The position numbers were made by a program, and so were the translations under genes. From Escherichia phage RB43, in sequence record NC_007023.1: a stretch of 64,000 bases of DNA; one strand, given 5' to 3'. The notes under the pieces were generated by a model that worked only from the letters and a program-made list of their open reading frames with translations, searched no databases and was not told the origin of the DNA. Positions 7,253-64,000 of this stretch are shown in pieces (position 1 is the first letter of the stretch; each line of letters begins with the position of its first letter).

Positions 7253-7460
7253 AAGCATCTTTGATTTTTTGAAGAATGGGTATCAGTTCTTCAACTTGCA
7301 TTCGTGTTAACGCGATCTCAAAACCATATTGATTAATTCGCGTGATTTGAGACACCGATTCTGAATCAAATTCAATAACCAGTCCATCACAATACTCTTG
7401 CGGTTGAAACCCATCGGCATATCCGTAATCATCGGGTATGGTTTCGGTTATTTTAGACAT
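7251..7460 (-). CDS. hypothetical protein (69 aa)
   Basis: ORF with ATG (MSKITETIP) 8 nt after AAAAGGTGG. Confidence 0.4.
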   Translation of the reverse strand: MSKITETIPDDYGYADGFQPQEYCDGLVIEFDSESVSQITRINQYGFEIALTRMQVEELIPILQKIKDA

Positions 7461-7614
7461 AGGGAAAACCACCTTTTACCATTTGGGGCTTGTCAACTGT
7501 TCGATGTGCTTCGCCTCCACATTCACAGTCTTTTGGTGCATCACGGGTCGCAATGCTGGACATTTTACTGAATTCTTTTTCGCACTTGGTGCATTTATAG
7601 GTATATGTTGGCAT
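7453..7614 (-). CDS. zinc-ribbon protein (FmdB-like CxxC...CxC)
   Basis: MPTYTYKCTKCEKEF...CECGG; start overlaps upstream stop (TAATG). Confidence 0.45.
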   Translation of the reverse strand: MPTYTYKCTKCEKEFSKMSSIATRDAPKDCECGGEAHRTVDKPQMVKGGFPYV

Positions 7615-17601: not shown

Positions 17602-17751
17602 TTTTACCTCTTTATACCGATTTTAGTAGCTCTTGCTTCGAGCAATCGATCAAGATATGATTTAGCCGCTCCCATATTCGGATGTCTATTGACAAAATCG
17701 CGAGCATTTACAATTCTTTCTTCGATTCGTTTTAGAGGAAGTTTAACAAAC

Positions 17752-23283: not shown

Positions 23284-25989
23284 TTACCAGTCATCACCAA
23301 ACAATGTGTTCAGGGATGCGCGTTTTTCGTAGTCAATTTTACATGCTTCCGTGATGTTTTTCAACGGACTAATCACATGTTTTTCAAATAATCCGTTGTA
23401 GTCTACCCATTTGAGAATATCACTTTCAATCTCATTTGGTAAACGACTACCGGATTGCCATGCAATGCAATCAGATTGCCACGGATTTTTATCACGTAAA
23501 GGCAGAACCATAACCTTTTCACCTTCCATAATCTGCGTGATTCCTTGAATCCCGCGAGTAAGACGGTTGAAGAACAGAACACCTTTGATGTGGTTCGGAG
23601 TTCCTTTAATTGGATGCCCCGTACCATCATTGTATTTCGTGATATTATTAGCAGATGATACACCAGCAATCTCTCGATAGTCAAGCGCCTTATACTCTTC
23701 TTCAAACACTTTGAAAGATTCGTGTAATGACTCTTCACCTTCTTGCAGAATGCGACGGATCGCTTCCTTTAAGAATACTTTAACTGCTGTTGGTGTACTG
23801 CTTCGCTGGGTTTCCATTCCCATGATTTTCAGCTTAGGCTTTTCATAGCGGGTTCCTTCGGAGTCCCACACGTTAGCCGCATAGCGTTTTTTCGCAGTCC
23901 AGAAACTACCCAATCCTTTCGATCCCAGAGGTGGCCCAGAAATGATTTCGCGATCCATAAACATCAAGTGTTCGACGTTGTTCATGTACTCGCATAGTTC
24001 GCGATAGCCCTTATCAATGATAGGTTCCATGCGCTCACGACTGAACTTATCCAGGAAATCAACCCAATGGTTGTTATCTCTGAACTTACTTTCACCACCA
24101 ACTTTCTCGATCACGTTATCCATACACACGTAAATTGAATCCGTGTCACAGTAACGCACGTATGCGTAATCGGTAGTGTTGCACAACTGGTTCAGGTATT
24201 CGTTAACTTTACGCTCAATCCACTGAATAGCCAACTGCCCGAACATGGTGATCGCGCTGGCGTTTCGGATATCAAAGTATCTGAAATGCTCGTTACCCAA
24301 CGCACCATAAAGGGAGTTGATACTGATTTTACGGTTAAGCTGTGCGGTGTTGGCCTGTGCGATCTTCTTCTCACAAACTTTCTTCACTGCTTTGAGCATT
24401 TGCTTAGTTAACGTTTTCAGTACCGCTTTCGATTCATCACTGAAATCAGAATAGAAATCGAAATCAGGATCGATCATTTGGTTGTGCGCGTCTGTCAGGT
24501 GTTCGAGTTCATGCTTGATTAATTCAAGATTTCGCTCACCTGCCATCATTCGTTTTTTCCACATCTTACGCTGATCAAATACTTTCTTGATCTCGACGGG
24601 GATCACGCCTTTAATGTCACGCCTGAACATCCACCCGTTAGGAGAGCAGCTAAATTCATCGCTAGGACGTGGAGCGGTCTTATTGATATATTCATCCAAA
24701 GGACGCACCGCGAAGCTGTTAGCGATTGTCTCAGGGCTTATATTCACCTGTCTGATGATAGACGGATACAGGCTGGTTAAGTCGAACGATACAATGTATT
24801 TGTATGGAGCGACAACCGGATCTTTAACATATGCGCCGTCATACGGGGTTTTCGTATGTCGTTTGTTTTCTGGTATCGCAATCTTATCTTCACGCAACGA
24901 GTTGTATATAATAGCGTCCCACGTTTTCAACGGAGACATAACCCCAGGGAAGTTAATTTTTGCGTAGTACGCAACAGACAGAACCAGTTCAATAAAGTTA
25001 CGCTTACCGTCGATATCAAGTACGCGAATAACATCAACGATGTTGTACGTGATGTACGTCTGGTGATCCTTCTGACGCAGTTCAGACAGAGAACCTTCGT
25101 AATCAACTTTGTTTTTGCCTGTTTCGTACTCAGCGATCGCGCCCAGAGAGTAAGACGGTTGCGGGGTGAAACTGAACTTTTTATAAAGATCCATCCCATC
25201 CATTTGAGACACGCCATAAATTTCGTATCCCAACTGTTCGTTTCCGTACTGGTCTGTTGTCGTCTTCGCTGTTACCTTACCGAACGGGCTAAAATGACGA
25301 ACCACGTTTTGCCCGAAAATGTTCAGGTAACGTGTGATGATGTAAGCGATATCGAATTTGTTCGAGTTCCAACCAGTAACAATTACTGGGGTTCTTTCTT
25401 TCCAATCCTTGATGTATGCAGACATCAAAGATTTTTCAGTCTGGAATGCACGATAAACGATTTTCTTCAAATCCTCTTCGCTGATTTCCTTTTCAGTATC
25501 AACTTTAGAGGCTACCCATTCATCTAAACCACCTTCAACTAGGTCATACACAAAGAACTTATCTTCAACACTATCATAGTGTGTGATTGCGTCGATTGCG
25601 TATTTTGCTTCGCGTGGATCGGGGAACTCAGGCGCTGTAACTTCGATATCGAGCGAGGCAATGCGAATACGTTCGCGGTTATATTCGATCTCATTTCGAT
25701 AGGTGTCGGAAATGTACGCCAACCTGAAATCGTCCATACCCAGCGCTTCCATACCAACATCTTTCATGCGCTGCATCCAGTTTTTAGCATCCTTGATGCA
25801 ATCAAACTTTTTCTTTATGCAGGTTTTGCCATAGATATCTTTATACGGCGAGTCAGTACCCGCCATAGCGTGTTGAAACAACGTAGGTTCATACTTTGTT
25901 TTACGAACTTGTTCGCGTCCGTCTGCGTCGATGAAGCGCTCATAGATATGATCGCCCATTTGTTCGACTGATAGATAAAATTCATTCAT
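23284..25989 (-). CDS. 43: DNA polymerase gp43 (family B)
   Basis: 901 aa; exo motifs and polymerase motifs (SLYPSII, YCDTDS) colinear with T4 gp43. Confidence 0.95.
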   Translation of the reverse strand: MNEFYLSVEQMGDHIYERFIDADGREQVRKTKYEPTLFQHAMAGTDSPYKDIYGKTCIKKKFDCIKDAKNWMQRMKDVGMEALGMDDFRLAYISDTYRNEIEYNRERIRIASLDIEVTAPEFPDPREAKYAIDAITHYDSVEDKFFVYDLVEGGLDEWVASKVDTEKEISEEDLKKIVYRAFQTEKSLMSAYIKDWKERTPVIVTGWNSNKFDIAYIITRYLNIFGQNVVRHFSPFGKVTAKTTTDQYGNEQLGYEIYGVSQMDGMDLYKKFSFTPQPSYSLGAIAEYETGKNKVDYEGSLSELRQKDHQTYITYNIVDVIRVLDIDGKRNFIELVLSVAYYAKINFPGVMSPLKTWDAIIYNSLREDKIAIPENKRHTKTPYDGAYVKDPVVAPYKYIVSFDLTSLYPSIIRQVNISPETIANSFAVRPLDEYINKTAPRPSDEFSCSPNGWMFRRDIKGVIPVEIKKVFDQRKMWKKRMMAGERNLELIKHELEHLTDAHNQMIDPDFDFYSDFSDESKAVLKTLTKQMLKAVKKVCEKKIAQANTAQLNRKISINSLYGALGNEHFRYFDIRNASAITMFGQLAIQWIERKVNEYLNQLCNTTDYAYVRYCDTDSIYVCMDNVIEKVGGESKFRDNNHWVDFLDKFSRERMEPIIDKGYRELCEYMNNVEHLMFMDREIISGPPLGSKGLGSFWTAKKRYAANVWDSEGTRYEKPKLKIMGMETQRSSTPTAVKVFLKEAIRRILQEGEESLHESFKVFEEEYKALDYREIAGVSSANNITKYNDGTGHPIKGTPNHIKGVLFFNRLTRGIQGITQIMEGEKVMVLPLRDKNPWQSDCIAWQSGSRLPNEIESDILKWVDYNGLFEKHVISPLKNITEACKIDYEKRASLNTLFGDDW

Positions 25990-26743: not shown

Positions 26744-27316
26744 TCACCATTTCTTTATTAATTGTTCAACCTTTTTCTGGTCAGTTTTATTTTTCACAAC
26801 AACAGCCAACACAGATAAAGCAACTTTCATATTTTTACGCTTCCACTCAGAAAGTTTATCCAACGATTTGAGTTCTTCGTAATACTCCATTGCTATACGT
26901 GTATTTACACCATACCGTTTTTGGAGAACATACAAGATAACTTTCATTTCGTTATCTTCGGTGAGTTTAGCCCACGCCCCGAATCGCTTACCTTTGCGCA
27001 CGGTATGCAAATAATAATTAAAGTGCGCCTGGTCAGGTAGACCGGAACCAATCATATTCATTGTGTATGCAGGGATCAGCGTGTCGATGTGCTGGCTCAT
27101 TGCATTGTCAATAAAATACTTGTCATAGGTATCGAGTCCGGCAATTACCAGAGGTTTCTTGCCGTCATTCAACTCTTCCAGGATCATGAACAAGGTGTTT
27201 TCCTTGTCCTTCCCGTAACCTTTTACAAGTTCTTCGATCTTGTCCCAATCTTTAGAACGCCAGGCCGCTTCATGTTCGTTCAATTCATCTTCATCGAGAA
27301 AAGCAGCCAGTGACAT
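26744..27316 (-). CDS. 62: clamp loader small subunit gp62
   Basis: Position and similarity (NEHEAAWRSKDW, MNMIGSGLPDQAHFNY). Confidence 0.8.
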   Translation of the reverse strand: MSLAAFLDEDELNEHEAAWRSKDWDKIEELVKGYGKDKENTLFMILEELNDGKKPLVIAGLDTYDKYFIDNAMSQHIDTLIPAYTMNMIGSGLPDQAHFNYYLHTVRKGKRFGAWAKLTEDNEMKVILYVLQKRYGVNTRIAMEYYEELKSLDKLSEWKRKNMKVALSVLAVVVKNKTDQKKVEQLIKKW

Positions 27317-32572: not shown

Positions 32573-32711
32573 GAGCGAAGCGAAGGACACGAACGTAGTG
32601 AGTGTCTAACTACAGAACTACACTTTTAAATTTTTATATTTTATATATAGAGAAAAATGTAGTTTTTGGTATGTTTTTTAACCAATATTACCTATCCGTT
32701 TCGCTTCGCTC
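32573..32711. repeat. 12-bp perfect inverted repeat pair (GAGCGAAGCGAA / TTCGCTTCGCTC) flanking 115-bp AT-rich core
   Basis: Arms at 32573-32584 and 32700-32711; extra CGCTTCG copy at 32719-32725. Confidence 0.7.
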
Positions 32712-55073: not shown

Positions 55074-55586
55074 TTGACAGAACTTGATGAACTCATTGAC
55101 AGTTTACGAATAGATTTCGAAGCTGGTAAGTGTTTCTGGGCTAAGAAGATAACCAAAAAGACTGTTGTTGGAGAAGAAGCGGGTTCCGTCCGTCCCGATG
55201 GTTATTGTAGAATCCGGTTCAAAGGAAAATATTACTACCGTCATCGAGTCATCTTTTATGCACGGAATAGGTTTCTTCCTGACGTTGTTGACCACATAAA
55301 AGAGGTTGACAATGGCGACGGTGTAGGTAATATTCAGGCAGCAACTCATCAACAGAATATGATGAAACAAAATATCAATTCGTTGAATAAATCTGGTTGC
55401 CCTGGTGTATCATGGGATACACAAAGAAACAAATGGCTTTCCACTATTAAAAAGGATGGAAAGAATATCTATATAGGTCGGTTTGCGTCTTATGATGACG
55501 CGGTTACTGCCCGAATTAACAAAGAAAAAGAACTATTTGGAAACTTTTATAATGAGCACAAACGCAAAGCCTGTAATTCTGACTGA
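55074..55586 (+). CDS. HNH homing endonuclease with AP2-like domain (paralogue of 16103..16600)
   Basis: YYRHRVIFYARNRFLPDVVDHIKEVD and GVSWDTQRNKWLSTIKKDGKNIYIGRFASYDDA. Confidence 0.7.
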   Translation: MTELDELIDSLRIDFEAGKCFWAKKITKKTVVGEEAGSVRPDGYCRIRFKGKYYYRHRVIFYARNRFLPDVVDHIKEVDNGDGVGNIQAATHQQNMMKQNINSLNKSGCPGVSWDTQRNKWLSTIKKDGKNIYIGRFASYDDAVTARINKEKELFGNFYNEHKRKACNSD

Positions 55587-58483: not shown

Positions 58484-58788
58484 AAGAGCTAAATCTATCA
58501 AAAGAAGAAGTTGAAAAGCGGATTGCCGAAGGACTTGAAGTGATCAAGTCTATCGACTGGGGAAAAGTGATTGATTCAATGCCTGATATCCCTGATACGA
58601 TTTGCCTTAATTGTGGGCGATCCGTAATGGTTGGAAAGTGCTGTGATAATCAGAATATCGTTATCATGGAAAGGAAAGAAGTTTCACCGGAAGTGTGGGA
58701 TCAGATTCAAGAAATCATCAAAAACCCACCAAAACCGACGAAACGTTTACGCGAACTTATGAGCAGGACACCACGTTATGAAAAATGA
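58480..58788 (+). CDS. hypothetical Cys-cluster protein (102 aa)
   Basis: CLNCGRSVMVGKCC. Confidence 0.45.
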   Translation: MKELNLSKEEVEKRIAEGLEVIKSIDWGKVIDSMPDIPDTICLNCGRSVMVGKCCDNQNIVIMERKEVSPEVWDQIQEIIKNPPKPTKRLRELMSRTPRYEK

Positions 58789-59155
58789 ACCAAGCAAAAC
58801 TGTGCGCCTTATCCGTTGGGAAGGTAACGAACTCCGTTATGAAGACGGCGATCGTGAATTCGTTCATGAAATGCTGGCGCACAATCTGGGATTGAAAAAC
58901 GCTAACCTGGTGCAGATGCAGCAGACAGCAGATCCCGACACATGGCAATGTGTTATTGTCGAACTGAACCCTAACAAGGAATACACAGAAGATGAACTCT
59001 TTGTGCTTGTTCAGGACGTTCCAGCGCGTCAGAAATGCTTTATGATCGACATGCCACGGGAAAACTATGAGAACATCAAGAAAGCCCGTCAGAAGCCCAT
59101 ACACAACGTATTTGATTTGTTTATGGGCTATCATGAGGAACCGGAAACGGCCTAA
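58778..59155 (+). CDS. hypothetical protein (125 aa)
   Basis: ORF track. Confidence 0.45.
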   Translation: MKNEPSKTVRLIRWEGNELRYEDGDREFVHEMLAHNLGLKNANLVQMQQTADPDTWQCVIVELNPNKEYTEDELFVLVQDVPARQKCFMIDMPRENYENIKKARQKPIHNVFDLFMGYHEEPETA

Positions 59156-60255
59156 GCCTCGCTTGTTTTGCTGTCGTCGTTAGTCGATGCCGCCACCTGT
59201 ACACATTCTAATGTTTGCAGGTGGAAATCTTTTGATACGTCACGAATACATTCAACAATCAAATATTTTCCCGCGTATTCGTCGCCTAATACTTCAATTA
59301 ATGCCCCCACTTTTACATCCATTCGACCTTGATTAATATCAAACTTAATCCGTTTTTCATAGCTGGACAGCAACTGACATTTAACCGCCTGGAATGGCTG
59401 GCCTTGTTTGTCTGGGTTCTGAAAGTTGGTATCATATACCGCGTTTCGGTTCATGGTGATCCACGCGTTCTCTATGTCTGTACTTGCGAGGATATCGCTA
59501 TACAGCTTTTTATCTGTCATTGAGAAGCTAAAGAAACTTGCATCACCTAATAATGTGGTGTTATCCTTATACGTAATGTATTCGCCTTTGGTAAACACCA
59601 GCGAATCACCTAAAAACGGGTTGCTCACGTTATACTTGTAAGCCTTGATCGGGGTTTGTGCAAGGATCTCCGTATTACTTTTCATAAAGATACCGGAACC
59701 ATCTTCCCACAAATAACAGAAGTCGGACGAATCAACGCTCTGACCATTATCCCTGATGTAATCAAACACGGTTTCATATGTCCCGCTTAAACATGCCGGA
59801 GGTATACGCACGTTTGATGCGTCAATCGTTGGGGTGATCAGTTTCTTATCGTTGTATAGTGCCGTCATGCACTCTGTAATCGTCTGTACGGCGTTATTAC
59901 TGAATGAACGGGAAAACTTACGACGAAACACCGTATGCACCGGAGAAAGGTTTAGGCGCAATATAGAGCGGTTCATATCATCCGTTTCTACGTTCGAATA
60001 CAGAACACCATAGTAATGCTGTTCCAACGTCTGATTATACTGGAAGGATACCTGTATGATCGGTTTCTCTGTCAACTGATAGATTAACTGGTTATCATAT
60101 ATCTGCATCAATGTTTCAGAAGTCCCGTTGATTATGGTCTTCTCACTCATTGAGACAAGGGCAGGTAGCAATTCAAGATAGACGTTATCAGCAAACTTTT
60201 CATATGTTGGATATAATTTAACCGATACGACACGGTTTATAACTTTATTGGACAT
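59152..60255 (-). CDS. baseplate hub-like structural protein (possible gp27 homologue)
   Basis: 367 aa, GGAGGA SD, divergent from gp28/29/48/54-like genes; similarity to T4 gp27 is a weak recollection. Confidence 0.4.
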   Translation of the reverse strand: MSNKVINRVVSVKLYPTYEKFADNVYLELLPALVSMSEKTIINGTSETLMQIYDNQLIYQLTEKPIIQVSFQYNQTLEQHYYGVLYSNVETDDMNRSILRLNLSPVHTVFRRKFSRSFSNNAVQTITECMTALYNDKKLITPTIDASNVRIPPACLSGTYETVFDYIRDNGQSVDSSDFCYLWEDGSGIFMKSNTEILAQTPIKAYKYNVSNPFLGDSLVFTKGEYITYKDNTTLLGDASFFSFSMTDKKLYSDILASTDIENAWITMNRNAVYDTNFQNPDKQGQPFQAVKCQLLSSYEKRIKFDINQGRMDVKVGALIEVLGDEYAGKYLIVECIRDVSKDFHLQTLECVQVAASTNDDSKTSEA

Positions 60256-60315
60256 TAGACATCCTCCCTTTATTCTATTTACTAAATAGTAAATATCGGG
60301 ATACTTGAGGCGATT

Positions 60316-60891
60316 ATGAAAAGAAAGAACACACTTGATAAATTTATGGTTACTCGTTTAAACATCAAGAACAGCAAGAACAAAACTGTTACCTTGCCTA
60401 CTGGTGAAGAAGTCACGATCCCGCGTCTGGGTTATCGTCATTTCACCCAGATTAAAGCAATGAAAGACCCTATGCAGTTACTTGATTATATCATCAACGA
60501 GATTAAACCACGCGATCTAACAGCAGCAGAAACCGAATTCCTTTTGATTCATTTGCACTATCATAACGATGATAAAGCAATGGAAGCATTGAAAGAGATC
60601 GGCATTAATCTTGATGATATGAAAATCAGTGAGGCTAAGTATGAATACACTTTCGATAACATCAAATTGGTATTCAATAAACCGACCCTGATGCTGGATG
60701 AACTTTCATTACTAATTAAAGAAGCATACGACAACGGGCAACCGATCGAGCTTACGGACGAAAACCGGATTCAATTAATTAACAGCCTGTATCGTTATGA
60801 ATATGACGAGGTAAAACGTGGCGTACTCCAGGAAGTATATATTGTGCATGAGGGGAAAACCATCAAAGGGCTTAACATCATCGGTGAATGA
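60316..60891 (+). CDS. baseplate hub subunit gp28-like (position-based)
   Basis: 191 aa immediately upstream of gp29-like gene. Confidence 0.35.
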   Translation: MKRKNTLDKFMVTRLNIKNSKNKTVTLPTGEEVTIPRLGYRHFTQIKAMKDPMQLLDYIINEIKPRDLTAAETEFLLIHLHYHNDDKAMEALKEIGINLDDMKISEAKYEYTFDNIKLVFNKPTLMLDELSLLIKEAYDNGQPIELTDENRIQLINSLYRYEYDEVKRGVLQEVYIVHEGKTIKGLNIIGE

Positions 60892-62625
60892 TAATGGCTA
60901 AAAACCCATATTACAGCGACGAACAACGTCGCAGGATGCAAAATCCACAACAGCCACAACCCACCGTTCGTAAGATTAACGCAACGTTGGATAAGGCTTC
61001 AATGAACGAATTGAAGGACATCAACAATAACACTCTTGAAACCGCGCTGAATACGCTGGATATCAAAGAGGGTATGAAGTCCTTTGAAGATAGATTTAAA
61101 GACAAATTTGCAGGGTTTAAAGAGCAATTCGAACAGGATCAGGAACCTCTTGCAGAACAGTTACCTGATTTTGTCGGCCCCGCACGACCTGCATCACTGA
61201 CAGACAACAGCACAACCACTGTTGACAATTCCGTTAGTGTAAGAAACCATCCGTTTAGCAAGCTGGAAGAACATACAGGCACTATTGCAGAAGCGATAAC
61301 ATCGTTTATCGCTCTTGCAAGCAAGAAGCCGGAACCAGCACCTGAACCGGAACCCGTGCCGGAAGAAGAACCAGAAGTTGATAAGACGAAGAAGAAAATT
61401 CGTGATAAAGACAAAGACGAGAAGAAATTCAGTAAACGTGTATTAGCATTGCTTGATTCAATCAAAAACAATACATCAGGGATACTGTCTCGCTTTATTG
61501 GTTATTCACTCGAAGCACTGGCTAAATTCGCTAAGTGGACATTGATTATTGGTAGCATTGTATTCGCGATCGACGTTCTGGCTAAGGTTGTTCAGAAGTG
61601 GTTCCAGGATATTCTAAGCGAGGGTGAAGCCTCGAAAGAATTGTTCGGATCATATTTCAAGAACATCAAAACACTTGCTGAAAAAATCAATGATGGTCTG
61701 GAAAACTTCGATATGAGCAATCTGGGCGACTCACTGAAAAATCTCTTTTTGGAACCGTTCAAAGTTCTGGGTGATACGATTAAAACCGCTATCACTGAGG
61801 GTATCGGTAATCTGATTTACGCACTGGGTGAATATACCGGATCGGAAACCATTACTGATGCAGGGCGCGGAATGAAAGTATCTGCGTTGCGTGATAAACA
61901 GAAATATGGTTTAGAGATTGATCAGGATGACCTGATTATGCTCAAAGAGCAAGAAATTCAGGATCAGAAAGATAAGATTGTTGAAGCCCGTTCTCAACTT
62001 ACGGATCAGGTTAAAGCGACACAGGGCGCGTTCTCCTATAGTTTCGGGAAGCAGACAGACGCACAGAAAGCATTGTCTAAGCAACTCGAAGAAATGCGCG
62101 ATCGTGTTTCTCTGGAAGAACAGATCACGAAGGAGAAAGAAAAGGAACTCCAGATGCTGAAAGACAACCCTACTCTGTTAAAAGAGCAGGTGCAGAAGGA
62201 GAACACCGAGAACCGGAAACGTGTTGATGATTCTAAGCAGATCGAAGCAGCACAGCAGACAAGCTAAACCAAAAGCCGAAAGCGAGTTTGATCGAGGTGA
62301 AGAAATTTTGGGTAAAGACGATATCACCGCGAAAGATAAAGAGTTGATGGATAAGATCATGGAATCTCTTGAAGAGAAAAATGCTACCCAAAAACTCGAC
62401 GAAGACGATCGCGAAAAATATCGTGCGATGCTGGAACAATGGCAGAACAAGATTGCAGTAGTACCGGAAAGCAGCGCACCAATTGACAAGCAACCGGAAC
62501 CTGTGAGAGCACCAGTTGATGCAGTTGCTTCTAACAACGTCCAGGTAAACCAAAAAACAGTTAATAACATGGTACAACATTCAGTACAACGCACTGAACG
62601 TAAGCCATTGATTGCATTAGCATAA
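60888..62625 (+). CDS. 29: baseplate hub / tail-length protein gp29-like, frame broken near 62259-62267
   Basis: 459-aa ORF 60888..62267 plus +1 frame continuation to TAA 62623-62625 totals about 579 aa; coiled coil and hydrophobic segment; precedes gp48/gp54. Confidence 0.55.
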
Positions 62626-62636
62626 GGGAAATTTAC

Positions 62637-63722
62637 ATGAAAATCAAAGTATTACAAGACACTGTGCAATCATTTGCTGAAATAAAAAATGCTGGCATCC
62701 CCTCTGGGGGTGCTACAACCACGAAAAACGCATTGAGTCAACCTATTGTAACAGCGGAATTTCCTTCCCAACGTGCAGCAGGTATTGATAACGCGTACAA
62801 CGCATCAAGCCTGTATAATAACGGCTTGCTGTTTACTGCATATGATTTCACTGGTGGTCTTGCACCAGGTAGCAAAGATAACTATCGTTCATTACGTCAA
62901 GCAGCACAGAACGCAAAACAGATATTAAGCGCTAACACAGGTAATGTTCGATATAAACAGGTTTTGAATACCCGTACTATGGGTACATTGAACCCGATTT
63001 GTCAAATACTTTTACCTCGAAGCCTTAACGACAACGAAGTAAACAGCCACCGTTACCAGGATGCAACCGATAGTATCGTTGCTAAAGGTTTGTCCCGTGC
63101 GGTGTCTAACGTTATCTGGGGTGCTGTAGAATCGGTTTCTGGTGGTATTCTGGCAGACCGTAGGGAAGCGATCGATATTGGTACGAAAGCAGCGTTTCAA
63201 GGCTCCGATAAACGTACAAAGATGTATTACAATACATTCGTAATCGAAAGCCGTTATGATCTGCTTGAACTGATTAAAATCTATTACCTGTTTACTGTTC
63301 TGGGTTATGGTACTACGTCAGGTGGTACACCTGCTGAACTGGCTGGCCTTGTTAAAACGGCGTATAACAATACAGCGTCTAAAGTGGCTAACGTGTTTGC
63401 ACCATCCAGCAACCAGACAACAGCAAGCGATTTCAATGACAGTATCGGTGATCAGATTGTTGACTTCGTATCGAACGTTGAGGTTATTAAATCGCCTCCA
63501 GTATGGTTTATTCGTGATTTCCAGACAGGTGACAGTCTACGCTTCCCGCATTCTACATTCGGGCCAGCAGGTATTACCAGCGTTCGTTTCGGGCGTACTA
63601 TGGATAATATCGTAAATACATTAAGAGAGTCACCCAATACACCGATATCCGTTGAAATCGAAATTCAGTTTATGGAATTGATCGACATGCGTCAAGATTC
63701 TATTTTCGATGTTCAATACTAG
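62637..63722 (+). CDS. 48: baseplate tail-tube junction protein gp48-like
   Basis: 361 aa, AAGGGAA SD; size and position as T4 gp48. Confidence 0.55.
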   Translation: MKIKVLQDTVQSFAEIKNAGIPSGGATTTKNALSQPIVTAEFPSQRAAGIDNAYNASSLYNNGLLFTAYDFTGGLAPGSKDNYRSLRQAAQNAKQILSANTGNVRYKQVLNTRTMGTLNPICQILLPRSLNDNEVNSHRYQDATDSIVAKGLSRAVSNVIWGAVESVSGGILADRREAIDIGTKAAFQGSDKRTKMYYNTFVIESRYDLLELIKIYYLFTVLGYGTTSGGTPAELAGLVKTAYNNTASKVANVFAPSSNQTTASDFNDSIGDQIVDFVSNVEVIKSPPVWFIRDFQTGDSLRFPHSTFGPAGITSVRFGRTMDNIVNTLRESPNTPISVEIEIQFMELIDMRQDSIFDVQY

Positions 63723-63730
63723 GGGGAATA

Positions 63731-64000
63731 ATGTTTTATAGCGTAGATGAATTCTTATCTGGAATGGCAAACAAAGATTTTCAACGCAGCAACTTGTTTA
63801 GCGTTGTGTTCGCCACGAGTCCAGCATCACGCATTCTTGATAGCACGATCGGAAGTATTCGAGATACGTTGATTGACGGCACAATGAGTTCAATCAACGC
63901 GAACAACCCGAACGAGTTCATGAACGCTATCACAGGGGGTGTAAGCAAATTATTCAGCTATACAGTTGATAAAGCGATTATGTCCCTCAACAAAACAGGA
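63731..64000 (+). CDS. 54: baseplate protein gp54-like (5' partial, continues beyond window)
   Basis: ATG after AGGGGG; ORF open to window end. Confidence 0.5.
   Translation, partial: MFYSVDEFLSGMANKDFQRSNLFSVVFATSPASRILDSTIGSIRDTLIDGTMSSINANNPNEFMNAITGGVSKLFSYTVDKAIMSLNKTG

Follow-up and report, generated by a model that had tools for sequence, protein, structure and literature searches.

Gene 27 of Escherichia phage RB43 and a candidate two-way late promoter at its divergence from the hub operon

Gene content of the locus

The window, meaning the whole stretch of DNA that was analysed, comprises 64,000 nucleotides of Escherichia phage RB43 (sequence record NC_007023.1). Over 58700-61000, the part compared, it is 100% identical to records of Pseudotevenvirus RB43. 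A preliminary description had drawn attention to a structural-looking 367-aa open reading frame (ORF) on the minus strand, divergent across a 60-bp gap from a plus-strand block resembling gp28, gp29, gp48 and gp54. The ORF list confirms this 367-aa frame at 59152-60255, and the gap is exactly 60 bp, the next plus-strand ORF beginning at 60316, so that the interval originally flagged, ending at 60315, consists of the ORF plus the gap. The divergence from the plus-strand block is borne out by the Pfam, PHROG and RB16 matches of those genes. The features of the locus are as follows.

59152-60255, minus strand: gene 27, gp27 baseplate hub / central spike complex subunit; 367 aa, ATG start, coordinates including the stop codon
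60256-60315: divergent intergenic gap of 60 bp, from the start codon of gene 27 (minus) to the start codon of gene 28 (plus)
60262-60268, minus strand: Shine-Dalgarno sequence of gene 27, GGGAGGA, 6 nt upstream of the ATG, read from the sequence
60306-60310, plus strand: Shine-Dalgarno sequence of gene 28, TGAGG, read from the sequence
60316-60891, plus strand: gene 28, baseplate distal hub subunit, first gene of the plus-strand hub operon (PF11110, PHROG 1140, RB16 annotation)
60888-62625, plus strand: gene 29, hub subunit / tail length determinator, split in two ORFs (PHROG 7361, PHROG 1283)
62637-63722, plus strand: gene 48, baseplate tail tube cap (PF11091, E 3.6e-63; RB16 annotation)
63731-64000, plus strand: 5' part of gene 54, baseplate-tail tube initiator, continuing past the window end

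Among the plus-strand genes, gp28 scored 24.1 bits against PF11110 (Pfam cut-off 21.5) and matched PHROG 1140 with an E value of 3e-46, and the part of gene 54 within the window is 98% identical to residues 1-89 of RB16 gp54. Gene 29 is represented by two ORFs of 459 aa and 134 aa, which match positions 1-459 and 454-579 of the 579 positions of the PHROG 7361 profile. One extra C at 62260 splits them; this 1-nt insertion is visible in the alignment with RB43-GVA and RB16, and the coding sequence is intact in RB43-GVA (576 aa).

In RB43 and its relatives, gene 27 stands alone on the minus strand, between an early block of co-directional genes, with the DNA ligase region at its end, and a plus-strand hub operon with the order 28-29-48-54-51-26-25. 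Its membership of the hub cluster is evident from its position beside 28-29-48-54 in the window, with 51-26-25 following further on in RB16 and RB43-GVA.

Identity of the minus-strand gene

T4 gp27 is a trimeric hub protein of four domains (PDB 1K28 and 5IV5); at the centre of the baseplate it forms a cup that connects the six-fold tail tube with the gp5 cell-puncturing needle. The 367-aa ORF passed the family thresholds for T4 gp27 in PF09097 (E 7.1e-25, 88.4 bits, Pfam cut-off 27), in PHROG 1135 'baseplate hub' (E 3.6e-129, residues 1-365) and against the PDB chain 1k28_D, which it matched as a single sequence with an E value of 2.4e-25. When a clade profile was used instead, the match to 1k28_D reached an E value of 4.1e-29 and aligned query residues 10-344 to residues 12-350 of the 391-residue chain, and hhalign against the gp27 proteins of RB69, Krischvirus and Jiaodavirus gave a probability of 99.8% (E 3.4e-28, 323 columns, 10-345 to 12-350). 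Homology to T4 gp27 in the clade-profile and hhalign alignments thus spans the multi-domain protein, beyond the N-terminal tube-like domain.

The two proteins are similar in size (367 aa in RB43, 391 aa in T4) and homologous over almost their whole length, and both genes adjoin hub genes 28, 29, 48 and 54, although the RB43 protein is only about 22-25% identical to gp27 of the T-even-type phages. Whereas the T4 family is described by PF09097 and PF09096 together with PHROG 1135, the Pfam match of the RB43 ORF covers domain 1 only (PF09097, residues 10-191), and the separate model for gp27 domain 2 gave no score at E <= 0.01.

This Pfam pattern, together with the record of Pantoea phage Phynn, which names one homologue 'tail associated lysozyme', could be taken to mean that the ORF encodes some other protein of the baseplate or tail, for instance gp51 or a lysozyme of the tail, with only the N-terminal domain in common with gp27. 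Such an identity is extremely improbable, however, given that the profile alignments to T4 gp27 continue to query residue 344 and that the PHROG baseplate hub family covers nearly the entire ORF. No lysozyme family was matched by the ORF in Pfam, and a putative gp5-like gene appears, by its length and position, to lie elsewhere (contig L014, 6079-7848). Nor did the gp51 family match the ORF in Pfam or PHROG; RB16 annotates a separate gene 51 downstream of gene 54, which excludes gp51 as the identity of the ORF, and RB43-GVA carries an unnamed coding sequence with the length and position of RB16 gene 51.

The ORF is accordingly identified, by its sequence homology, as an orthologue of T4 gene 27 encoding the gp27 baseplate hub subunit. 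Of the two names originally proposed, gp27 is upheld by the near full-length profile matches and by the gene 27 annotation in RB16, and gp51 is dropped; a match to a non-structural family, which would have contradicted the structural appearance of the ORF, was looked for in the profile searches and none was found. In GenBank the RB16 orthologue, RB16p093, is annotated as gene 27, as are those of many relatives, and the annotated gene 27 of RB43-type relatives shows no difference of substance from that of RB43, gp27 being 57-98% identical. In the collection searched, the two closest RB43 records label every coding sequence in the inspected region 'protein of unknown function'. The flagged ORF is the already annotated baseplate hub gene 27 of the T4-related coliphage RB43.

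The best PDB match of the ORF was 9F4A, a 'putative baseplate hub subunit'; a literature search on this PDB code returned unrelated papers only. A word-indexed homologue search for gp27 yielded 20 close relatives, a shallow set for structure modelling, and the AlphaFold2 model built from an alignment of 13 close homologues (mean pLDDT 46.4, pTM 0.38) was too poor for a fold search.

Late-promoter-like boxes in the gap

The T4-type late promoter TATAAATA, located at -13 to -6, is recognised by gp55 acting together with gp33 and the gp45 clamp. As the preliminary description had indicated, the gap lacks an exact TATAAATA but contains TAAATA-containing boxes, and the string reported from it, TAAATAGTAAATA, is present at 60283-60295. 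The canonical octamer had also been judged by eye to be missing elsewhere, and string counts agree, with 0 exact copies of TATAAATA on both strands of the window; shuffled sequences led us to expect 2.6 per window, so that this absence alone is not significant. Counting both strands, the window holds 14 copies of the relaxed core TAAATA, and 3 of these copies fall within the 60-bp gap, where 0.013 were expected (Poisson P about 4e-7). These 3 are also the only TAAATA hexamers of the window with a Shine-Dalgarno sequence and an ATG close behind.

The boxes in the gap were read directly from the sequence and then ranked among 127,966 window positions by a weight matrix, which was derived from 16 sites in the RB43 late region that lie outside the window. 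The candidate elements are listed below.

60276-60283, minus strand: late-promoter-like box AGTAAATA, gene 27; ranks 3rd of 127,966 by the weight matrix
60281-60288, plus strand: late-promoter-like box ACTAAATA, gene 28 operon; ranks 17th by the weight matrix; the clade-wide plus-strand box
60288-60295, plus strand: second plus-strand box AGTAAATA; ranks 8th by the weight matrix; corresponds to the published Pl:60263
60276-60295, either strand: opposed late-promoter-like boxes, which together make a perfect inverted repeat of 9 bp, TATTTACTA aa TAGTAAATA; read from the sequence

The specificity of the matrix is modest, since sites at 26902 (minus strand) and 37074 (plus strand) that are not upstream of start codons score equally high or higher. 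Each gap box matches 6 of the 8 positions of TATAAATA and departs from it at -13/-12 only, where the T4 late box reads TA and the candidate RB43 promoters read AG or AC. In other respects the gap boxes resemble the T4-type late promoter: both are short AT-rich boxes with a TAAATA core and no need for a -35 element, and both shortly precede the Shine-Dalgarno sequence and start codon of virion genes. From the end of the box to the ATG there are 20 nt for the minus-strand box and 27 or 20 nt for those on the plus strand. Because the T4 rule puts the box at -13 to -6 (PMC1524935), the start site of gene 27 would lie near 60270, with a leader of about 15 nt.

The gap has no exact copy of TATAAATA because the late-promoter consensus of RB43 is relaxed, as seen in the RB43 late-region sites and in PMC1524935. 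Sites upstream of structural genes in the RB43 late region read (T/A/C)ATAAATA, and also CCTAAATA, GCTAAATA and TGTAAATA. The gap boxes fit this phage's own late consensus, NNTAAATA, and are placed immediately before the Shine-Dalgarno sequence and start codon of late-gene orthologues. A C at -12 is found repeatedly in front of late genes in RB43 (CCTAAATA, GCTAAATA), and CTAAATA, with C at -12, is the late-promoter consensus of Aeh1 (PMC1524935). The G at -12 found in AGTAAATA counts against the promoter reading: it is rare, being present in a single site (TGTAAATA, in front of the gene 24 homologue) among the 16 used for training, and a review of T4 late promoters describes them as adhering tightly to TATAAATA and deviating from it mostly at single positions (PMC2988020).

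Nolan et al. (2006) listed an RB43 late promoter, Pl:60263, on the plus strand at 60263-60305 with a score of 10.7 (PMC1524935, Additional file 5). In two other sites of that list that we inspected, the box begins about 25 nt into the 43-nt listed span. Five of the RB43 late-promoter coordinates of Nolan et al. lie in the window, and of these 60263 alone has a TAAATA core; the matrix was therefore derived independently, from the RB43 late region. Their list has no minus-strand counterpart serving gene 27 (PMC1524935), which weighs against the minus-strand box; as a candidate, this box is a small addition to the 2006 predictions. The KP15/KP27 genome paper contains nothing specific on this gap or on late promoters.

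It is quite unlikely that transcription of gene 27 starts not in the gap but at an early or middle promoter of the sigma-70 type, or at one in the antisense strand of gene 28. The non-canonical G at -12 of the minus-strand late box would favour such a promoter, as would a weak minus-strand sigma-70-like match at 60341-60313 (TTATCA, a 17-nt spacer and CATAAT; 9 of 12 positions). Sigma-70-like matches are not enriched in the region, however (16 found vs 17.0 expected from shuffles), and the weight matrix detected no further strong box on the minus strand between 60316 and 64000, the part of the window beyond the gap. Moreover, gene 27 encodes a virion protein, and late promoters were reported by Nolan et al. 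exclusively upstream of orthologues of T4 late genes (PMC1524935). The TAAATA core on the minus strand is, in addition, invariant across the clade.

Conservation of the divergence point

We compared the locus in eight RB43-type lineages, namely RB43, RB16, KP15-like contigs, contig L009, Mm5, POP12, Phynn and JC221. Gene 27 diverges from gene 28 in 8/8 of them, with gp27 57-100% identical, and RB16 (RB16p093), Citrobacter phage Miller, Lw1, KP15-like phages, JC221, POP12 and Mm5 share with RB43 the same gene 27, the same divergence and the same neighbours. By contrast, genes 51, 27 and 28 are co-directional in five other T4-like genera (RB69, Krischvirus, Jiaodavirus, Acj9 and Biquartavirus); in the T-even type, 51-27-28 form a one-strand unit with overlapping 51/27 reading frames, whereas in RB43 genes 27 and 28 lie on opposite strands.

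Within the gap, nothing but TATTTA(N0-1)TAAATA is invariant; this block is retained in 8/8 lineages, down to a gp27 identity of 57%. The motif TTGAGGC at the Shine-Dalgarno sequence of gene 28 is kept in 6 of the 8. The second plus-strand box is kept in RB43, RB16, the KP15-like contigs, L009 and JC221, and is degenerate in Phynn (AACAAATA) and POP12 (AGTAGATA). The gap boxes of POP12 read AATAAATA on the minus strand and ATTAAATA on the plus strand, and in Morganella phage Mm5 the gap carries the palindrome TATTTATAAATA, which yields the canonical TATAAATA on both strands.

In T-even-type phages such as RB69 the predicted bidirectional late promoter lies between genes 26 and 51 rather than between 27 and 28. 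The same block, TATTTA(N0-1)TAAATA, occurs at this 26|51 divergence point in 4 of the 5 T-even-type phages checked, and in 3 of the 5 (RB69, Jiaodavirus and Acj9) the gap contains the palindrome TATTTATAAATA with the canonical TATAAATA on both strands; the Krischvirus gap has a canonical box on the plus strand only. For RB69, paired plus- and minus-strand late promoters had been predicted in the 26|51 gap (Pl:118620 and Pl:118672; Nolan et al., PMC1524935). The predicted RB69 and RB43 promoters are alike in that each marks a divergence within the hub cluster and has back-to-back boxes, a palindrome and a gap of about 50 bp. They differ in that the T-even-type boxes overlap as the canonical TATTTATAAATA, whereas the core hexamers of RB43 stand one extra base apart and are followed by a second plus-strand box.

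The symmetry of the gap raises the question of whether the 20-bp palindrome is mainly an operator for a dimeric regulator, or a hairpin or cruciform signal, that coordinates both hub units. Its arms are symmetric over 9 bp, three positions past the TAAATA core, and both share the unusual AG at -13/-12; furthermore, an exact scan of IMG/VR found the 20-mer inverted repeat identical in 10 relatives, including where gp27 is only 75% identical. Against this, only the two TAAATA cores are invariant across the 8 lineages, and the additional symmetric positions vary in POP12, Phynn and Mm5. The gaps of Mm5 and of the three T-even-type 26|51 regions collapse to overlapping canonical TATAAATA, as promoter selection alone predicts. 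The hairpin that the palindrome forms as a single strand is weak, at -5 kcal/mol (z -1.7), and is matched by 12 of 200 shuffles; a hairpin or terminator reading was rejected because so weak a fold lacks significance. No candidate for the regulator emerged, and we consider the operator or hairpin explanation unlikely. The 20-mer was also found in an unrelated AT-rich IMG/VR contig (L025), which we took as a probable chance match, the neighbouring ORFs being unlike hub genes.

Discussion

The ORF is very probably the gene 27 orthologue, with the gap acting as a compact bidirectional late promoter for both units. In the mechanism that we propose, the 60-bp gap would drive both transcription units late in infection, with the phage sigma factor gp55 recognising it. 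The minus-strand box AGTAAATA (60276-60283) would serve gene 27, and the plus-strand boxes ACTAAATA (60281-60288) and AGTAAATA (60288-60295) would serve the gene 28 operon. The 9-bp inverted repeat would then be created by two back-to-back boxes relaxed at -13/-12. The identity of the protein, the order and orientation of the genes, the sequence of the boxes with its conservation, and the earlier prediction of the plus-strand promoter are shown directly; we infer that the gap boxes are active, where transcription from them begins, and that they require gp55, gp33 and gp45.

A more speculative reading, which as a whole we regard as unlikely, is that RB43-type phages turned the overlapping TATTTATAAATA into a spread symmetric variant with G or C at -12 and a duplicated plus-strand box. 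Hub proteins are needed in few copies, and the spread variant, if true, could mean a lower level or a different timing of these proteins. On the same reading, since no terminator-like site was found on the plus strand between 58071 and the 3' end of gene 27, early plus-strand transcription might pass antisense through this lone inverted gene and keep it silent until late. Another version is that a dimeric regulator specific to the site binds its symmetric 9-bp arms.

Overall, the analysis adds little that is new, as the stretch is confirmed to be gene 27 as annotated in a published phage genome. The unusual orientation of gene 27 corresponds to the known genome topology of RB43-type phages, and the lack of TATAAATA to the relaxed late consensus that earlier work had described in RB43. 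As a small comparative addition, TATTTA(N0-1)TAAATA marks the hub-cluster divergence point in all eight RB43-type lineages. A divergent arrangement with a conserved, probable two-way late promoter is ordinary for the RB43-type phage group.

Gene 27 and the facing plus-strand block

The minus-strand ORF opposite the gp28/29/48/54-like block is identified by all sequence evidence as gp27, the baseplate hub subunit. The preliminary description, a 367-aa minus-strand ORF separated from the plus-strand block by a 60-bp gap that contains TAAATAGTAAATA (60283-60295) and lacks an exact TATAAATA, is correct in every part; the latter motif is absent from both strands of the 64-kb window, against 2.6 copies expected from shuffles.

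Features of the 27|28 region
59152..60255, minus strand: gene 27 ORF, 367 aa, ATG start
60256-60315: intergenic gap between facing start codons, exactly 60 bp; the next plus-strand ORF runs from 60316
60276-60283, minus strand: late-promoter-like box AGTAAATA, containing TAAATA
60281-60288, plus strand: late-promoter-like box ACTAAATA, containing TAAATA
60288-60295, plus strand: late-promoter-like box AGTAAATA, containing TAAATA
Plus strand: gene 28 (PF11110, PHROG 1140)
Plus strand: gene 29 (PHROG 7361 and 1283)
Plus strand: gene 48 (PF11091, E 3.6e-63)
Plus strand: start of gene 54, the end of the plus-strand block in the window
63611-63618, plus strand: CGTAAATA, inside gene 48 at its 3' end; gene 54 begins 112 nt further downstream

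The sole Pfam match of the ORF product is PF09097 (baseplate structural protein gp27, domain 1), which scores 88.4 bits where the curated threshold is 27, and residues 1-365 match PHROG 1135, 'baseplate hub' (E 3.6e-129). Among PDB sequences it matched T4 gp27 (1k28_D and six more entries, E 2.4e-25) and 9f4a, a 'putative baseplate hub subunit' (E 6.8e-30). A profile of 13 clade members aligned residues 10-344 to T4 gp27 12-350 of 391 (E 4.1e-29), and profile-profile comparison with gp27 of RB69, a Krischvirus and a Jiaodavirus gave a probability of 99.8% over 323 columns. Whether the protein was gp27 or gp51 is settled in favor of gp27 by these matches and by RB16, in which the orthologue is annotated '27, gp27 baseplate hub subunit' and gene 51 has its own annotation downstream of gene 54. 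The AlphaFold2 model, made from a shallow alignment, was poor (pLDDT 46.4). The segment 58700-61000 is 100% identical to two Pseudotevenvirus RB43 records and 88-98% identical to Citrobacter phages Miller, CfP1 and IME-CF2, Lw1, and RB16. Together with the published RB43 promoter coordinates discussed below, which fit the window's own numbering, this suggests that the window corresponds to the start of the original RB43 GenBank entry.

The cluster runs from the ligase region (plus) through 27 (minus) to 28, 29, 48, 54, 51, 26 and 25 (plus), the last three genes being seen, all on the plus strand, in RB16 and RB43-GVA. Divergent 27|28 was found in every examined relative with gp27 at least 57% identical, comprising RB16, KP15-like and other IMG/VR contigs, Yersinia phage JC221, Pantoea phage Phynn, Pectobacterium phage POP12 and Morganella phage Mm5. 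By contrast, five other T4-like genera (Mosigvirus RB69, Krischvirus, Jiaodavirus, Acajnonavirus Acj9 and Biquartavirus) have 51, 27, 28, 29 and 48 on the strand opposite to 25 and 26, so that 27 is co-directional with 28. Inversion of gene 27 therefore belongs to the RB43-type genome topology, which has been described as unique to RB16, RB43 and KP15 (Petrov et al. 2010, PMC2993671); RB43 also shows the most gene-order exceptions (Nolan et al. 2006, PMC1524935).

A predicted bidirectional late promoter in the gap

TAAATA occurs 14 times on both strands of the window, with three copies inside the 60-bp gap (Poisson ~4e-7), and only these three closely precede a Shine-Dalgarno sequence and start codon. 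Across the late region of RB43 (RB43-GVA 100-150 kb), boxes upstream of structural genes are mostly (T/A/C)ATAAATA, with CCTAAATA, GCTAAATA and TGTAAATA in addition, in line with published comments on the poor conservation of -13 in these phages and on CTAAATA as the Aeh1 form (PMC1524935). A weight matrix from 16 RB43 late-region sites, none inside the window, ranked the gap boxes 3rd, 8th and 17th of 127,966 window positions, with high scores also at a few non-promoter-like positions. G at -12 is rare in RB43 late boxes (1/16 training sites), and the T4 late consensus is normally tightly kept (PMC2988020). A late promoter had been predicted at 60263-60305, exactly inside the gap (Nolan et al. 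2006, PMC1524935).

The simplest reading is that the RB43 gap is a T4-type late promoter working in both directions, non-canonical at -13/-12. The gap also holds a perfect 9-bp inverted repeat (plus strand 60276-60295, TATTTACTA aa TAGTAAATA), which on this reading follows automatically from two opposed copies of one motif; its single-strand hairpin is weak (-5 kcal/mol, z -1.7). A regulator-binding role for the 9-bp arms is less likely, since their symmetric positions outside the core vary in POP12, Phynn and Mm5.

With a bidirectional promoter, gp55-RNA polymerase would open the minus-strand box late in infection and start near 60270, giving a ~15-nt leader with GGGAGGA before the gene 27 ATG. 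Plus-strand transcription would begin near 60294, near 60301 or at both, upstream of TGAGG and the start codon of gene 28, and would cover 28-29-48-54-51-26-25. Gene 27 could hardly be served from elsewhere, because only the antisense of the hub operon lies upstream of it on the minus strand, the weight-matrix scan found no other strong minus-strand box there, and sigma-70-like matches in the region are at chance level.

The window's top score with the same matrix was CGTAAATA at 63611-63618, where gene 54 may have an internal late promoter. Nolan et al. 2006 place four more RB43 'late promoters' in the window; these, at 17672-17714 (minus), 25805-25847 (plus) and 32617-32662 (both strands), have no TAAATA core at the listed coordinates and read ATAGACAT, CATAGATA and TATATATA; that list seems to mix in weaker motifs.

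Adjacent sequence features

Compared with RB43-GVA and RB16, the window has one extra C at 62260 (CAGCAGA[C]AAGC), which breaks gene 29 (60888-62625; hub subunit / tail length determinator) into two ORFs, 459 and 134 aa long, whereas the CDS is intact (576-591 aa) in RB43-GVA, RB16, Phynn and JC221. Since gene 29 is essential by established T4 genetics, the extra base is probably a sequencing error in the record, and we favor a real mutation or frameshift site less.

On the ligase side, a plus-strand ORF of unknown function (58778-59155, PHROG 7253) and gene 27 overlap convergently at their stop codons (59152-59155). As we found no terminator-like site on the plus strand from 58071 to the gene 27 start (60255), early plus-strand transcription coming from the ligase region could pass through gene 27 in antisense and enter gene 28. 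A 170-aa ORF (55074-55586, plus), located two ORFs ahead of the DNA ligase gene, has a sub-threshold AP2-domain match (20 bits, cut-off 33.3), in keeping with the HNH-AP2 putative homing endonucleases described in RB43 and RB16 (PMC2993671). For Lw1, an absence of putative AP2-domain endonuclease genes has been reported (PMC3861415).

Divergence points across T4-like phages

Ten IMG/VR relatives, among them four with gp27 only 75% identical, share the 21 bases CTATTTACTAAATAGTAAATA without a change, and the flanks differ. When four more distant lineages were added, TATTTA(N0-1)TAAATA, the back-to-back core hexamers of one minus and one plus box, was the sole invariant block of the gap. POP12 has AATAAATA (minus) and ATTAAATA (plus), Phynn keeps the first plus box and has AACAAATA as the second, and Mm5 carries a 12-bp palindrome, TATTTATAAATA, that yields canonical TATAAATA on both strands. 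An exact copy of the 20-mer TATTTACTAAATAGTAAATA also lies at 7460-7479 of an unrelated AT-rich viral contig (L025, IMGVR_UViG_3300025886_000425) beside lysine-rich ORFs with no apparent resemblance to hub genes, and is probably a chance match.

The Mm5 palindrome also fills the divergent 26|51 gap of RB69 (L015, 2669-2715), Jiaodavirus (L018, 2665-2715) and Acj9 (L019, 2163-2215), and that of Biquartavirus (L020, 2185-2227) holds TATTTAAATA. For the RB69 gap, paired plus and minus late promoters have been predicted (Pl:118620, Pl:118672; Nolan et al., PMC1524935). A predicted bidirectional late promoter is thus widespread where the hub cluster diverges, although the RB43-type divergence point differs.

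Much of this is already known: many relatives have gene 27 annotated, the topology is on record, and the Nolan et al. 2006 predictions include the plus-strand promoter but list none on the minus strand for gene 27. One small comparative addition is that TATTTA(N0-1)TAAATA is common to two separate points at which the hub cluster diverges.
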